This document shows positions 1,296 to 63,574 of a stretch of 64,000 bases of DNA, piece after piece. Where the stretch lies: the NCBI GenBank assembly GCA_963693365.1, contig CAVNZM010000002.1, positions 496,001-560,000 of the forward strand, given 5' to 3'. Below the pieces are notes generated by a model. It did not search any database. It was given only the letters and a program-made list of their open reading frames with translations, and had not been told where the DNA came from. The position numbers and the translations under genes are program-made. Within the stretch, counting starts at the first letter, position 1. Each line of letters opens with the position of its first letter. This DNA is from Amoebidium appalachense (lineage: Eukaryota > Protista > Ichthyosporea).

Positions 1296-2423
1296 GAAAG
1301 ACGGGAGGAAAGAGAAAGAGAAAGAAAGAGAGGACGAGAGATAGGAAGAGGAAGCGGGAAAGGGAGAGGGAGAAAGATTTGTGTGCTCGTAAGGTGGGGG
1401 TGGGGGGGGGGGGGGGGGGGGGGGGGGAGGGGGGGCAGGGGGAGGGGGGGAGGGTGTGTGAGCCGTGGGTGTGTGTGTGCGTGTGTGTGGGTGGGACGGA
1501 GGCAAGGAGGGGGAGGGAGAGAGGGAGGGATAGAGAGAGAACGGGGAGAGGGAGAGAGAGAGAGGGAAGGAGGGAGGGAGAGAAAGAGAGAGAGCGGGAG
1601 AGGGAAAGGTAGGAGAGAGAGAGGGGGGGGGGGGGGGGGGGGGGACGGAGGGAGGGAGGGAAGGAGAGTGTGTGAGTTTGTATGCCCAAGTGAATGGGTG
1701 GGTAAAACGGTAGGGATGGGGGGAAGGGGTGTGCACGTGCACTGCAAACCAGCAGGTTTGCGCTGGCACATGAGTTTGGGTGTGTGTGTGCATGGGGCGG
1801 GGGGCTAAAGGGATGGACGAGAATAATGTGTGGTGTAGAAACAGTTGTCAGCCATGTCAGCCCCCCCCCCCCCCCCCCAAAAAAAAAAAAAGAGAGAGAA
1901 AGAAAAGAAAAACCCACCATAGTCCCACAAGCATTCCTGTCTTTCCCAACCCTTATCTCGGGCACTCACAACAACAACAACAAAAAACACCTGAACACCA
2001 AACACTCTACATGCCAACACACACTTCCTACCCACATTCCCCAATCCCCCCCCCACCTCCTCCCCCCCCCCCATTCCCCTCCCTTCTTTCCCCTTCCCAC
2101 CCAAACCCCCCCCCCCCCTCTCCCACCTTCACCTCCCTCCCTCCCTCTCCCCCTTCCTCCCCCCCCCCCCCCCTCCCCTACCTCCAGGTCGTTGCAGCTG
2201 AACTGCATGCCGCCCGCATTGACCAGCTCGTCCAGTGCCGGGTGTGTGTTCCAGACCTCATGCATCTTAGCAGAGAGAAGGAAGCACGTGGCTGCTATCA
2301 GCTGCACGTGCACGGCCTTGACCTTTACCACAGACAGCAGCCGGTCAAACAGGTTGGCCGCAACAGCAAACGTCTCAGGGTGGTACTCCAGCTTCTTGTT
2401 CATCTGCAGGAAATGAGTAGGTG

Positions 2424-2457
<34 letters not shown>

Positions 2458-3331
2458 TCGTGTCCGACGACTAAGCAAAAGCCAACCCCCCCCCCCCCCC
2501 CCCCCCCCGGTGCAAATACACAGGTCCAGAAGTTAGATAGCCTTCTCCCCATCGCACAACCTTTGTAAGTAACCAACCGATGTGTACGTGTAGAGAAAAA
2601 GAACCAGCCATCAACCCCTTCTCCTCCACACCTTCCCTCTTGCCTATACTGTGAGGATTAGAATGCAATTCAAAACATCAGTTTATGTACTGATTTTTGC
2701 TTCGCGATGTGTCTTGGTAACCCATACGGCCGTGGGGTGTCACAAGCCCCTCCCCCACCCCTCCCCCCCCCCTCCCGCCCCTTTCCAACCCCTCCCCCCC
2801 CCCCCCCCCCCCCCTTCCCCCTCACCCCCCCGCCCAACACCAACACTAGCACCTACACTCACCCCACGCACAGGCACACACTCTCCACCACCAGAACTCA
2901 CAACACTAATCACCGCTTCCGAACGGCCCGTTTTTGGCCGACCCAACCACTTGTGTCCAAAACAGCGAGCAGGCGGCACAAGCAAGTGTACCCACCCTGA
3001 GGATCCAGTCCAGAACCTCGTAGCGCAAACCACCGGTGATCTCGTCGCGCTGCACCTTGCTGAGGTAGTGGGGGTTGGGCATGTGCCGCTCCTGCCCAGC
3101 CAGAGACAGGGCAAGCAGGCGGTGGGCGGGGGTGAGGGAGGGGGAGTTGGCTTCGGCAAGCGTGAGCTTCTTCATGTGCGCGGCCAGGTTGAGGCCGGTC
3201 TCCTTGCGCGGCTTAAACGGCGCACTCTTAGCCACGCTGCGCAGGCGATCCTCGGGGGACGAGGGCTGCGCGCGAGGCGCGGGCCCCCGGGACCTGCGGC
3301 GTTGGGTTGGCTTGGTAGCGGTTTTCACCAT
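123..3331 (-). CDS. Cyclin G/I-like protein, 3' part beyond the window; exons 3331-2996, 2403-2182, 282-123
   Basis: GT-AG spliced exons join in phase into a cyclin box: [59 protein letters not shown]...[25 protein letters not shown]. The VKxK and RMExxxLDKLxW segments resemble cyclin I/G. Confidence 0.85.
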
Positions 3332-4690: not shown

Positions 4691-13578
<8,888 letters not shown>

Positions 13579-15188: not shown

Positions 15189-23605
<8,417 letters not shown>

Positions 23606-24407: not shown

Positions 24408-30551
<6,144 letters not shown>

Positions 30552-32805: not shown

Positions 32806-32846
<41 letters not shown>

Positions 32847-33494
32847 TGAATGCGGAACACGGTACGAAGTACGCATACACGAAGGACACATGCAAAGGCA
32901 AACATTCAAGTATGCAACATAGCCATGCGCACAGTATGCGTCATAAGCAGAGCCCATCCTCAGGGAGGGCCCAAGTCATCAATTGCGTCTGAGTTTCGAC
33001 CCCTTAGCCCGCGTATATACGACTCTCCAACTCAGACAGCAGCATGAACTGAACTTGGGAGGGTCAACCCGTCTTGATCAAAGACGAGCAGGGTTGCTTA
33101 TGCAAGCAAGGTGAGCAAAACGGTGAATATGTGTGTGCAAACTAATGCAGTGCAGCGAAAAATGCGAATGTGCTTACAGATGCACGACACAGCAATCATG
33201 CCCGGTTGCATGGAAGTAAAGCGGGGGGGGGGGGGGGATGAATGCGTCATAAAGTTCGAAGTACACATGAACATCGGATAACACGATGCAGAGTGCAAAC
33301 CATACAAAAAGAGTATGCATAATAAGCAGAGCCCATCCTCGGGCGGAATGCAGTAGCAAGTACCAAATGCAAACTTGCATTCCAATAACGCAATAACATA
33401 GCTAAAAGAAAGCACAGAGGGTGCCCAGGGATTCGACCTCCCTCAGGAGGAGAAGAGGGGGGAGGAAGGGGAGGGGGGAGAGTTTTGGAGAGAA

Positions 33495-39437: not shown

Positions 39438-39472
<35 letters not shown>

Positions 39473-40344
39473 TGAATGCGGAACACGGTACGAAGTACGC
39501 ATACACGAAGGACACATGCAAAGGCAAACATTCAAGTATGCAACATAGCCATGCGCACAGTATGCGTCATAAGCAGAGCCCATCCTCAGGGAGGGCCCAA
39601 GTCATCAATTGCGTCTGAGTTTCGACCCCTTAGCCCGCGTATATACGACTCTCCAACTCAGACAGCAGCATCAACTGAACTTGGGAGGGTCAACCCGTCT
39701 TGATCAAAGACGAGCAGGGTTGCTTATGCAAGCAAGGTGAGCAAAACGGTGAATATGTGTGTGCAAACTGATGCAGTGCAGCGGAAAATGTGTATGTGCT
39801 TACAGATGCACGACACAGAGCAACCATGCCCGGTTGCATGGAAGTAAAGGGGGGGGGGGGGGGGGGGGGGGGGGGGGAGGATCAAGGAGCAGTAGTGGGG
39901 TAAGGTTGGCAGGCAGAGGAAAAGGGGAACCAGGGGGGGATCCAATATGGGGGGCCATGTGTGTTGTGCCCATGTGCTCTTGTGTGTGCATGTCAGCGCG
40001 CATGGTGTGTGTGTGTGCGCACCTGGATGTGTGTGTGTGAGCACGTGTGCGCATGGGCATGCATGTCAGTGTGTGTGTGATTGTGTCTGTGTGTGTGTGT
40101 GTACGCGCGCGCCTGTTTTGTGTGCATGTTACTAGAATGAAAGTACACACGTGTTTGTGTTTCGTCTGAGCATGCGCTCACACAAACAACTATTAGACAC
40201 GTGCACACGGCACATTCGTATACACACACAAGAGTATATTCACGTGCGGACACACACACACACAAAAGCACACACAAGTACACATACAGCGTGCATTAAC
40301 ATAATCACATATACACACAGGGTATTCGAGACATGCACAGTACG

Positions 40345-59323: not shown

Positions 59324-61572
59324 TATACGTAAACCTTGTAAAAGTGCTCTGTCTGTAATAAGCTTAGTTCCAGTTTGGCAGACCCTTGAAAACACGCCGT
59401 GGCACAGCGCTAGCGGTACGAGCGTTGGCCGTTTGATGCGCTGGTCTTCGATATTTTCTTTAGTTTTCAAACATATGCATGCCTTTCATGATTGTCCTCT
59501 CTTGTGGTATATTATACCGGATATCTAGTATGGATGTACACAGGTTGAGATATACGCGCACGTGTACATGTATATATACCACTGTGTTTGATCTTAGGCA
59601 GGCCAGTATGCATGTCCCCCCAGTCTTGTGCGCATGAGCATAGAGTTAAACATATGTGCACGTGCAACTTGCAGGATTATTCATGGGAAAACAGATATAA
59701 TAGTCACATGGGACCGACACGTAGTAGAGGAACCATGAGCGTTCAATAAGTTATAGTTTTTATCATGGGAAAATATGCAAGTAGCCGTGAGGTATGACTG
59801 TGGAATGCATCGATAATCAAGTACTGTCACCCGATTGGCTCACTAGGTTTATTGGAACCGTGATAGCCATGGGACAGAACCGTGAACCGTATGTGATTGG
59901 CTCTCGTAGCCAAAAAGCACATACCGATGCGCATGTCTGAGTCGCTGTGCGAGCTCCGATATAAGGGCATGTCGGGGGCTTCAGAGCTCACTCAGTGTGC
60001 TCGGCTTACTAGGTGTAAGTAGGACTAGCACGTAACTAAGCAAAGCGTGGTCTAGTCAACCCCGTTCATTTATAAACATATTGTTTGTCACAGACACACG
60101 ATCATATTATACAACAGCTGAGCTACACCCCCTGCAGCGCTAGTTCTTGCGCTGCAAGTGTGCTCGTATCAAGCAAGTACTATGTTTTTAGTTGTTTGGG
60201 TTCTAACATGTCTAACCACCTTGGTGACAACAATGCCGGCCCTAGTGGCCTGCATGGGGGGGAAGCTAGAAACGCCGACCTCATTTTCCTTGAAGAACTC
60301 GGCTATAATGTTCCCCTTTCCCCCCCCAGCGCTTCACCGTGGCACCCTCCTGGAGCAGACATTCCGTTGCTCGACCGTGTCTACTTCCGCTCACACGACT
60401 TGCAACACGACAATCAATACTGCTTCTCTTTTCATTCAGGGGAAACCGACTACGGCCAATCATTTGACCCCGAAGACCTGCCACCTGAAGATAATCGACA
60501 TTCATCAGTCGACCTTCTCCACGGGCTGGAAGTCGAGGTCAACGCAAACGCAAGCAGAGGCACCAGACGCCCTGGTACGCGCCCTAACGGAGTATGCAAA
60601 TTTGCACAACAAGACGGGCGTGAGCCTGGCAGCTTGGTGCTGGTGCGTTCTTGGGTGTCTCCTTCTGTTCATGCTGCTGGCATTTTTGGTATCGAAGTTT
60701 GCCAGCTGTACAGCGCGCACGGCACTGTACCGTTCGTCGTCGGCACTCACCATGCTCCACCAACAACTACTCGCCCTCGCGAATGTATTCACTTCCAGGC
60801 AAAACTACGCGTGCCTTTCAGGGCAGTCTTCCCCCATCACTAAGTCACATGAATTTATCAATCAGTTAGTGACTCTTAGTCGTGGTGAGCTCGACCTAGT
60901 GGTTACTGTAAACATCTGTACACGCCGTACATGTTTACTATTACGAATATACTGTACATATCATAGTGATCACGTAGATATTGTGTACATATGATCAGAT
61001 CAATATCACACGCGACAGCCGCGGGCTGCGGCTCACGACTGAGCCGCGGCGCCGGCAATATGCAGTGGCCGTGCAGTCAGTATGAACCAATAGAATTCGA
61101 GAACCGCTAGGATAGGAATGCAAGTCTCATCCACTACGGAGGCGACATCTATAGCTAAACGAACGGAACCAATAAGGAAATCAGACCCTGGCAGTTGCAT
61201 AAACCTAAACGGGCTTAAGTATTGACCAATCATTTGCCACAAAGTTATCCTTTTAGTTAGCTTCATGTTATTGGTGCACTGTGTGCACATAAAGACGACC
61301 GCACTCTTCTGACTGGTCAGAAGTCACGAAGGCATCAATGCCACCCATCCAGATGATCCGGAACCTGGGGGCTATATAAACAAGCCGTCCCAGTACGGGG
61401 GATCACTCTGAACGAGCACATTAAATAGTAACCTGGCCGCGTGTGCCTTACTACCCGTTCTCTGTCTTTATTCTGATTCAGTTGTTCTCTGCCTTATCCC
61501 AACTAGTTCAACTGTTTACATTGGCGACCGCGCAGTTCCAGAATCTCACATCTTTCAAGAATCTCTTCAACC

Positions 61573-62613
61573 ATGGCGGGCGAATTTGACGACTACCCTG
61601 TACTCTCGGACAATGAAAGCAAACTGACACGTGACACCAAGAAGCCTACCGCAGTCAAACCGCCGCCCCCAACGCAGAAGAAAGCCAAGACTCCGGGGCA
61701 GGGCACGAAAACACTCCCCACCCCTCCCCCTACACAGCCTCGTGCTCCCCAGAAACCGAACACGATCACAAAACCCAACACACACACGAACACAAAGGCA
61801 ACTACGAAGCCCACTGGCAACGAACAAACGAAGCCCAACGAAAGCACGAAACCCAAAGACAAAACGAAGCGCAACGAACACACGAAAACCAACGAACATA
61901 CGAACACCAACGAACACACGAACACCAACAAACACACGAACGAACTTCAAGTAGCAACGAAGGAAAAAACGAAACAAGACCGGGACACTGCCACAGCTCT
62001 GGCAGAGGTGCGGGGCCGTGTTCTCTCCAAGTTCTATCGTATTGAAACTCTGAGACGTGCCATTCAAACTGCAATCGATGCTGGGCGGCCTGTGATGGAC
62101 CTCGAAGCTGATGTCGCGCAGATTTACAGTGAGATTTCGCAGATGGAAGACACCACACTGTCTAGAATGTTGTGCACGTCCGCGAAATGGTCTGAGTTGG
62201 AGCGGGAAGCACAGTTGGTGGCTGAGGCACGTGTGAAAAATACGACGGTGCCCACCACCCCCCGTCCTCCCCCACCCACCACAGGCAAGAAGCCTTTGTC
62301 CCCGGTCCCATCTGGGTGCACTGATCCCAAGGTAATTGCACCTCCCGCACCCCCCACTAAATTTACATATAAGGATGTGCTTGCGCGCACACTCAGCTAC
62401 ACTGATTCTGATGCTGAAAATGAAGAAAAACACGAACAAAGTTACGAAGACACACCCACAAACGAAAACGAACACATGACTGCGAAAGTGCATGAAGAAG
62501 ATCACTTCGACCAGCCTAAAGCACCCGTATTTAACGAAATCCCCCTTGCAGGATCCCCTCTGGCGTCTGCAGGTGGACTGGCAGGCACGCCAAGGCGCCC
62601 CGAGAGGCTCTGA
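61573..62613 (+). CDS. Retrotransposon ORF1 / N-terminal part of Gag (NEHT-type hexapeptide repeats, coiled coil)
   Basis: ATG in good context 52 nt after the LTR; 346-aa open frame. Confidence 0.7.
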   Translation: MAGEFDDYPVLSDNESKLTRDTKKPTAVKPPPPTQKKAKTPGQGTKTLPTPPPTQPRAPQKPNTITKPNTHTNTKATTKPTGNEQTKPNESTKPKDKTKRNEHTKTNEHTNTNEHTNTNKHTNELQVATKEKTKQDRDTATALAEVRGRVLSKFYRIETLRRAIQTAIDAGRPVMDLEADVAQIYSEISQMEDTTLSRMLCTSAKWSELEREAQLVAEARVKNTTVPTTPRPPPPTTGKKPLSPVPSGCTDPKVIAPPAPPTKFTYKDVLARTLSYTDSDAENEEKHEQSYEDTPTNENEHMTAKVHEEDHFDQPKAPVFNEIPLAGSPLASAGGLAGTPRRPERL

Positions 62614-63574
62614 TGTCAGCACAGGCTCAGGAGGTAAGGCTGGGTCTATATTGAACAAGCACTTTGCAGAGCACGAAAAACTGTGGTTGCACCCTCTCCG
62701 CCAGTTGCATGCATCCGAATACGGCCCCATCTTGGCTGCATTGAAACTACCAGAATACAAGGGTGACTTGCAGGATAAATGCACGGTGATTGAATGGCTG
62801 CACGAATTTTCCCAGCAGATGTTTTGCATTGCAGGGGTCCCCCCCACACTTGCTGTTCGCTGGGCGGTGCAGTGCTTTCCTCTTGCTTCCCCCGCCCGTG
62901 TGTGGTACACGAATTTTACCAGGACACAGGGAGAACTCACGTTTGATGCATTTGCACATGCACTAGTTACGAAATTTCACGACCAGCGTGTGCAAGAGGC
63001 ACTCAGTGCCGAATTAAATGCACTCAAACAAGGCAAGCAAAAGGTGGCCGAATTTGCAAGCAGGCATGCGCGTTTGTGGGCACGTGTGTACCCCCTTAAG
63101 TCTGAGGCACACCAAATTTTGGATTTGTCTCACCGATTGGGTGGGGAAGACGAACAAGAATTTCGCAAATATCAACTCAGACAAACACGAAAAGAAGAAG
63201 AATTGACCCTGTCTGGAGTTGTTGCCTATCTCGCAGAAAAAGAAAGAGACAGGCACACACGAACCCCATCCACCATTCTAACACAGAAACCCCCCACAAA
63301 ACAGCAACCCGGTGGTGGATCTGGTGCCAGCGAGAAGCCGTCTATTTTTTCGCGCATGGGCACCACCCCCTGCAACCGTGGGTGCAAGTACGGCAGCCAC
63401 GCCGAAGGCAAGACGTGCCCGGCCCTCAAATTCGAATGCCACTCCTGCAAGCAGAAGGGGCACTTTGGGGGGTCACCAATTTGCCCCAAGTACGACCCCA
63501 ACTTTAAGAAGGGAACCCGCAAGGCAGAGATTGAGGCTAATCGGGCCAAGTTCAAGAGAGCACGTGTAGAATAG
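62492..63574 (+). CDS. gag: Gag capsid plus zinc knuckles
   Basis: LPEYKGD...EWL, ARVWY...TFDAFAHALVTKF...LKQGKQKVAEFASR (retrotransposon Gag/MHR-like), CHSCKQKGHF knuckle. Confidence 0.88.
   Translation: MKKITSTSLKHPYLTKSPLQDPLWRLQVDWQARQGAPRGSDVSTGSGGKAGSILNKHFAEHEKLWLHPLRQLHASEYGPILAALKLPEYKGDLQDKCTVIEWLHEFSQQMFCIAGVPPTLAVRWAVQCFPLASPARVWYTNFTRTQGELTFDAFAHALVTKFHDQRVQEALSAELNALKQGKQKVAEFASRHARLWARVYPLKSEAHQILDLSHRLGGEDEQEFRKYQLRQTRKEEELTLSGVVAYLAEKERDRHTRTPSTILTQKPPTKQQPGGGSGASEKPSIFSRMGTTPCNRGCKYGSHAEGKTCPALKFECHSCKQKGHFGGSPICPKYDPNFKKGTRKAEIEANRAKFKRARVE

Follow-up and report, generated by a model that had tools for sequence, protein, structure and literature searches.

A predicted split hammerhead ribozyme in a dispersed repeat of Amoebidium appalachense, with similar wiring in Naiad Penelope-like elements

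A dispersed repeat of the ichthyosporean Amoebidium appalachense carries the core strands of a hammerhead ribozyme in an order in which the catalytic strand appears to be opened between A9 and G10.1. The repeat was analysed in a continuous stretch of 64,000 nucleotides (the window, whose positions are used throughout). Judged from sequence, the motif is real and far beyond chance and is well supported as a structure, and the split wiring described below is very probably correct. The block order is known already from the type-SGC hammerheads (Eckert et al., 2023; PMC10085705), while the break at A9/G10.1 and the setting in a genomic retroelement go beyond what is described there. The motif can be regarded as an SGC hammerhead re-opened at A9/G10.1; by analogy it is predicted to work like type-SGC, although block C, uninterrupted by definition in that type, is interrupted here. 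On balance, the best explanation overall is that the repeat is the tail or a derivative of a Chlamys/Naiad-type element carrying a predicted SGC-class split hammerhead, which likely acts as two copies.

Core strands and anatomy of the motif

The window DNA is eukaryotic and rich in microsatellites, with 151 runs of C or G of at least 10 nt. It holds four long copies of the repeat (B1, B2, A1 and A2; Table 1), all of which contain CUGANGA, GAAA, NUH (H not G) and the A15.1-U16.1 pair. The core strands follow the order cleavage site > GAAA > CUGAGGA (S > G > C), and the stems cross. An earlier note on this DNA had named the same four core-bearing copies, and the gapped pattern GAAA...GATGAC...CTGAGGA finds exactly these four in the window and nothing in 100 shuffles. 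The positions given there for the + copy, A2, are right (GTT at 27274-76, TGGGTT-GAAA at 27298-307, TCC-CTGAGGA at 27335-44), as is the B1 triplet at plus-strand 39655-57; the predicted cut falls between 39655 and 39654.

A strict descriptor of the split hammerhead, with at least 5 bp in stem III, at least 3 in stem I and at least 5 in stem II, matches three of the four long copies (B1, B2 and A1). A2, quoted in the earlier note as the example, does have the core strands but fails the descriptor because of a C-U mismatch in stem III. Applied to 200 dinucleotide shuffles of the window, the descriptor gives a mean of 0.015 matches and a maximum of 1. Shuffling everything but the core letters restores the three stems in 1, 7 and 6 of 20,000 trials (B1, B2 and A1 only). 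A chance resemblance within the repeat could appeal to the shortness of the core motifs and to the small number of sequences, since B1 and B2 are 97.9% identical and the window thus provides only about three independent ones. Against it stand the shuffle controls and the fact that the complete wiring recurs in several phyla of animals, and such a coincidence can be regarded as vanishingly improbable.

Hammerhead families are absent among the 150 Rfam matches listed (of 308 at E<=1), as expected for a permuted form. Pattern matches in viral (9/9) and metagenome (7/7) sequences were rejected: by eye their stems are missing, and they look like chance in coding DNA. A minus-strand ribozyme, as in a viroid-like rod, was also dropped; the GTTTC complement occurs in subfamily A only.

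In B1 the motif spans 39568-39729, with the minus strand as the element strand. Its first half, read 5' to 3', consists of the P0 5' strand, a hairpin, the stem II 5' strand, the bridging helix, a 3-nt bulge with tandem G.A, stem III and GUU. The second half continues with the stem I 3' strand, a 21-nt linker, the stem II 3' strand, GAAA, stem III, the bridging helix, the stem I 5' strand, CUGAGGA and P0. Stem I has just 3-4 bp. The proposal of the earlier note, a split or pseudoknotted hammerhead whose stem II 5' strand lies upstream, is supported by pairing, by energy and by the wiring of distant Naiad records read by eye. The closing helix and hairpin that it placed between A9 and G10.1 are found in the copies, and the hairpin is likewise placed in the Naiad records. 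The split wiring of that proposal stands, but its architecture overlooked the bridging helix and the kink-turn-like motif. In the lowest-energy B fold, the stem I 5' strand pairs with the core end and the following GGG (hairpin 39581-39595, minus strand), which represents a possible off state.

Table 1. Elements of the B1 motif, copies of the repeat and a Penelope-like coding fragment in the window
Feature	Position	Strand	Remarks
Closing helix P0, 5' strand	39717..39728	-	8 bp distal + 3 bp proximal; partner 39568-39581; distal part in MFE fold
Hairpin abutting G10.1	39693..39715	-	with P0, domain inserted between A9 and G10.1; same place in Naiad records
Stem II 5' strand	39686..39691	-	begins at G10.1 (39691); partner 39624-39629
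Bridging helix 5' strand	39676..39685	-	equivalent of type-SGC 'I' helix; partner 39596-39604
Predicted kink-turn, bulged strand	39670..39675	-	3-nt bulge, then G.A, A.G, U.U; partner 39605-39607
Stem III 5' strand	39656..39669	-	ends in U16.1; partner 39608-39620
GUU triplet and predicted scissile bond (39655/39654)	39654..39657	-	by analogy to hammerhead core
Stem I 3' strand	39651..39654	-	partner 39590-39593
Stem II 3' strand and G12-A13-A14-A15.1	39620..39629	-	
Stem I 5' strand plus core CUGAGGA (C3-A9)	39583..39593	-	
Copy B1, 378 nt	39471..39848	-	between two poly-C runs (element strand)
Copy B2	32845..33220	-	97.9% identity to B1; k-turn G1b altered
Copy A1	16687..17410	-	motif 16772-16927; 13-bp stem III; Kt-7-like k-turn (3b.3n = A.G); upstream limit approximate
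Copy A2	27195..27445	+	motif 27204-27359; mismatches in stem III, bridging helix, P0
Copy A3	23074..23247	-	5'-truncated; core decayed
Adjacent pair of 5'-truncated copies, C-run between (partial tandem)	9601..9887	+	
5'-truncated A-type copy	33224..33343	-	immediately upstream of B2
5'-truncated B-type copy	5030..5184	+	starts at C-run preceding CUGAGGA
5'-truncated 3' end of Chlamys/Naiad-type Penelope-like ORF	18732..19100	-	last 122 aa of P0001

The motif is neither a nested three-way junction nor a circular permutation of C > G > S, and it belongs to none of the hammerhead types I, II and III. The order UH > GAAA > CUGANGA, which the earlier note had set apart from these types, is present here but was already published as type-SGC (PMC10085705). 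Type-SGC (HRIMA-1 and variants) and type-CSG both cleave in vitro; in the description by Eckert et al. (2023; PMC10085705), the SGC examples come from metatranscriptomes, none from the genome of a known organism, and type-CSG is known from two metagenomic sequences. The repeat shares with type-SGC the order site > GAAA > CUGANGA, the full core, a short linker between stems I and II, a helix bridging the other sides of these two stems and the same puzzling distance to stem III (PMC10085705). However, here the cleavage block is preceded by one bridging strand and by the 5' strand of stem II, P0 and a hairpin lie at A9/G10.1, both strands join the bridging helix to stem III via a predicted kink-turn, and the motif sits in a eukaryotic genomic repeat. 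Type-CSG has the same cyclic block order opened elsewhere, with block C intact (PMC10085705). The rule of Eckert et al. is that block C is uninterrupted and that stem II begins within 1-2 nt of A9 (PMC10085705); one unpaired nucleotide at A9/G10.1 is known from hammerheads.

Hammerheads of Penelope-like elements (PLEs) offer a second comparison. The minimal type I hammerheads of canonical PLE pseudo-LTRs and of non-LTR retrozymes (PMC4209133; bioRxiv 10.64898/2026.07.22.740005) are similar in their PLE terminal-repeat setting, presumed dimers and non-autonomous derivatives, but the minimal type I forms have the canonical order and dimerise via stem III. In the repeat, stem III is long and pairs within one molecule, and pairing between copies would involve stems I and II. 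Work by Lunse from 2017 is said to be related to the minimal type I hammerheads of PLEs and retrozymes. Non-LTR retrozymes are marked by circular RNA and by tandem units with a type I hammerhead, and the repeat motif is not of type I. In mainly open literature, covered mostly through titles and the openings of abstracts, there is no account of the split form or of permuted hammerheads in PLEs.

Pairing, the stem II partner and the kink-turn

In the alignment of the four long copies, 95.2% of 188 cells are paired and five pairs show a two-sided change, compared with 28-43% in slid controls. This is support rather than proof, because the sequences are few and related and the structure was derived from them. 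The bridging helix comprises 9 pairs, with 94% of cells paired and one two-sided change.

The choice of stem II partner decides whether block C is interrupted. The earlier note also allowed for a strand 2 nt past CUGAGGA as the partner, which would leave block C intact and make the motif an ordinary type-SGC hammerhead. Such pairing can form (22/24 cells, six possible pairs in B1, B2 and A2, one two-sided change), and the 2-nt insertion is within the range tolerated by Eckert et al. (PMC10085705). However, the upstream partner pairs in 24/24 cells with two compensatory pairs, and its duplex energy is -6.7 to -8.7 kcal/mol vs -2.2 to -5.1 for the downstream one, so that it is the more stable by 3.0-4.5 kcal/mol in each copy. 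The downstream strand is G-U-rich, forms merely 4 bp in A1 and competes with P0, and the Naiad records Plae and Movir-2 are without such a partner. As the upstream partner is favoured in both energy and pairing, block C is interrupted and the motif lies outside type-SGC as defined; pairs with the downstream partner can form in three of the four copies, but an intact SGC fold is very improbable.

Variation among sequencing contigs bears on the same helices. Run X1, which may be the window's own source, provides 7,006 contigs on B1 and 10,559 on the A1 stretch, figures that are not copy numbers. At one stem II pair, 87 contigs have a variant at position 16886 and 89 at 16832 (3.2% and 2.7% of depth), and these matched rates fit a U-A to C-G change, the variants being unphased. 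Other helix variants on the A1 stretch mostly keep the pair; pairs are broken in the hairpin at 16894 (11%) and in the bridging helix at 16800 (2%). Over the contigs on B1 and A1, one hairpin pair is broken in 11-16% of X1 depth. The core positions C3 and U4 are each variant in 1.8% of X1 depth, but the scarcity of core variants is no test of selection, because the contig variant tables are sparse throughout, with 19 rows in 366 nt and 36 in 731 nt.

The kink-turn at the joint of the bridging helix and stem III is predicted from sequence alone, against the definition in PMC5061560. B1, A1 and A2 have two helices separated by a 3-nt bulge and tandem G.A/A.G, but B2 does not, its G1b being changed to C; contigs on B1 contain no variant at G1b that reaches 3%. 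In subfamily A the bulge is followed by G.A, A.G and A.G, as in HmKt-7, and in B1 by G.A, A.G and U.U. A U.U at 3b.3n, the state of subfamily B, is box C/D-like. In comparison with the standard kink-turns (HmKt-7, box C/D; PMC5061560), the 3-nt bulge, G.A and A.G are common to both, and the A.G of subfamily A at 3b.3n is like that of Kt-7. The motif is kept at this joint in subfamilies A and B and in the octopus Naiad records.

The repeat family and its Penelope-like relatives

A profile search of the window gives 17 matches, 14 of which extend to at least model position 375 of about 378. The 5' ends are variable, and almost every match abuts C-rich sequence. Copies A2 and A3 are decayed, and no copy in the window begins or ends at the predicted cut site. 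Upstream of the A1 motif lies about 480 nt of extra sequence that is likewise repeated in sequencing contigs and contains no ORF recognisable by eye. Head-to-tail units are found in single contigs, with a joint of 39841 to 39514 in X1 and X20 and a 438-nt period in one X13 contig.

The position of the truncations is an observation of its own: many 5' truncations fall at the C-rich stretch preceding CUGAGGA and are fused to poly-C (5030, 9758, 33343; loose ends 16799). They likely reflect microhomology with the target or a stall of reverse transcription at the structure.

A shared 3' end, 5' truncation, a (C)n microsatellite target and partial tandems are traits that the repeat has in common with Naiad and Chlamys elements. 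The last three are described for these elements by Craig et al. (2021; PMC8557442), and the likeness extends to the wiring of the 3' UTR motif in 11 Naiad records. A coding fragment of the same kind lies in the window (Table 1), and its 122 residues (18735-19100, minus strand) are 100% identical to the end of P0001, a 938-aa transcriptome protein. P0001 has an N-terminal GIY-YIG motif, CxC, DKA and a C-terminal RT, and its endonuclease core is without the Naiad CxxC. Its best homologues are 31-37% identical, and a search with it gave no viral locus. These motifs suggest that P0001 is Chlamys-like and of the same class as the likely mobiliser, the likeness holding at class level. The fragment lies between two poly-C runs, the second beginning about 25 nt past its end, and the motif does not follow it. 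The sequence traits of the repeat make it likely that it comes from a Chlamys/Naiad-type Penelope-like retroelement, as its tail or as a non-autonomous derivative, and it is quite probable that its driver is Penelope-like.

Naiad 3' UTRs were read by eye, unscored, in the supplement of Craig et al. (PMC8557442), whose consensus list has 54 Naiad families; the reading covered all 117 places of 16 strings NCTGANGA, the line-start cases in part and two whole parts. Within this scope, 11/54 Naiad consensus records, from ctenophore to octopus, have the split wiring with unrelated stem sequences. Five are confirmed by their headers (Plae, EuTe, Aacu, Anas and Ovul), and the others are named via file order (Bfor, one Clytia family, Amil, Movir-2, Obim and one squid family). 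Stem II has 4-6 bp, stem III 5-12 bp and stem I 4-6 bp (2-3 in Bfor), with three stem II mismatches in Aacu and one in the squid record. In every one of these records a hairpin lies at or very close to G10.1, and P0 starts 0-1 nt past A9 where its partner is in view (not in Bfor; weak in octopus). In the two octopus records, the joint of the bridging helix and stem III has a box C/D-like k-turn of the opposite polarity.

Other Naiad records contain intact forms, again read by eye: type-CSG in six records of the nematode range, and type-SGC in two arthropod records, with the cleavage block ~130-230 nt upstream of GAAA. Four partial or ambiguous records are left out of the counts: Dst-1 and the record preceding Sdum, which follow the S > G > C order with stems I and III but an unclear stem II, and two more from Darwinula. 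The remaining Naiad records gave no match in the portion covered (most bivalves, incomplete consensus sequences, line-broken strings), and the split form was not seen by eye among the Chlamys consensus matches there. Chara families have canonical motifs, already in File S2 (PMC8557442). Craig et al. (2021; PMC8557442) describe Naiad and Chlamys as being without canonical hammerheads, some elements having cores or 'half cores' with GAAA 35-50 nt off on either side. Some motif-bearing Naiads are labelled HHR_core or HHR_half_core in that source, where the half-cores are given no fold. The split form offers a concrete answer to why Naiad and Chlamys seemed hammerhead-free and to what the 'half cores' are.

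Predicted docking and cleavage

The RNA is predicted to fold as a hammerhead of the type-SGC class in which the chain enters and leaves via P0, between A9 and G10.1. By analogy to validated SGC and CSG RNAs, cleavage would occur after GUU, in B1 between 39655 and 39654. GUU is a weaker cleavage triplet. Each copy would form a rod made of the bridging helix, the kink-turn and stem III. The loop of the rod would present the 3' strands of stems I and II, the latter with GAAA, together with the cleavage site, and its base the 5' strands of both stems, that of stem I with CUGAGGA. One copy could then dock by its base on the loop of a second within a tandem or two-pLTR transcript, and two kinked rods could even close a reciprocal dimer (a parallelogram, offered as an idea only). 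Cleavage would trim multi-unit transcripts and spare single copies. At least some copies probably cleave.

Docking between two copies is favoured because, with the kink formed, one rod is too short for its base to reach its own loop: the reach is 25 A vs 70 A needed, estimated with rough parameters of our own (2.8 A per pair and 6.3 A per free nucleotide). A monomer would also be strained, since the bridging helix is tied to the far ends of stems II and III, which point apart; in hammerheads these two stems stack coaxially, pointing in opposite directions (PMC10085705). PLE hammerheads elsewhere need dimers and are weak in vitro. Given cleavage, this geometry somewhat favours a two-copy assembly.

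The same split wiring could instead cleave as a monomer if fraying, or remodelling by a protein, opened the kink-turn and distal stem III and so let the bridging helix reach round. In subfamily B the slack suffices once the kink-turn region is melted (83 A vs 48 A needed), and the ctenophore record, with a 15-bp bridging helix and a long insertion, would have room to reach. Isolated SGC and CSG RNAs of 77-81 nt self-cleave during transcription (PMC10085705), and one active PLE hammerhead provides the precedent of protein assistance. However, A-type copies are too short even when melted (51 A vs 62 A). The EuTe and Acropora Naiad motifs are similarly short in reach, the 5-bp bridging helix of EuTe running straight into a 10-bp stem III and the 10-bp helix of Acropora into one of 12 bp. 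Retention of the kink-turn motif at the joint in both subfamilies and in the octopus records also speaks against fraying, and monomer cleavage is considered unlikely.

The lowest-energy folds hide the core, and freeing the docking strands costs 6.0-13.5 kcal/mol. Single-strand folding z-scores are mixed (-2.69, +0.45, -1.17), from a method that does not model pseudoknots. The fold could also be read as a catalytically silent relic, or as a mere binding or initiation structure for the retroelement protein; the competing folds, the decayed copies and the lack of an insertion end at the cut site in the window are consistent with this. For the one active, protein-assisted PLE hammerhead, insertion in vitro did not require hammerhead cleavage, and its insertion ends likewise do not lie at the cut. 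On the other hand, no catalytic letter of CUGANGA, GAAA or NUH (H not G) is lost in the split Naiad records while their stems are turned over, which matches the prediction of selection for catalysis. A silent fold is improbable, and a cleaving, two-copy split hammerhead is the preferred reading.

A broader proposal is tentative: the motif may be a seventh natural hammerhead wiring, opened through the catalytic strand as a four-helix junction, and may be the hidden ribozyme of Penelope-like elements with an N-terminal endonuclease, in hosts that range from animals to this probably non-animal one. It would act as a copy-counting switch, in which two kink-turn-bent rods dock base-to-loop and only tandem transcripts are cut, possibly under the control of a host L7Ae-family protein. 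The split motif would overturn the assumption that the CUGANGA block and stem II are inseparable, which confines hammerhead searches to six permutations. Non-circularly permuted ribozymes would move from a few environmental RNAs to high-copy eukaryotic retroelements, and a ribozyme with a tolerated core insertion site and possibly an obligate two-copy assembly would be a useful design module.

The window has several further features. A tRNA-Tyr(GTA) with an 11-nt intron lies at 12219-12303 (+); its reading as tRNA-Leu is a miscall that arises when the intron is ignored. A Ty3/gypsy-type gag region at 61507-63574 (+) matches PF03732 and PF19259, has a zinc-knuckle-like motif and is preceded by a 368-aa low-complexity frame. 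The segment 33900-36000 is an AT-rich island (GC 40%) with an internal repeat and two overlapping frames without a Pfam match, and looks like a decayed foreign or mobile insert. Intron-rich host genes at 6900-11300 (+), 2182-3300 (-), 15189-15953 (-) and 20134-20784 (-) encode a glutathione-reductase-like oxidoreductase, a cyclin and two GATA zinc-finger proteins (the second by eye), and several copies of the repeat sit in introns of such genes.
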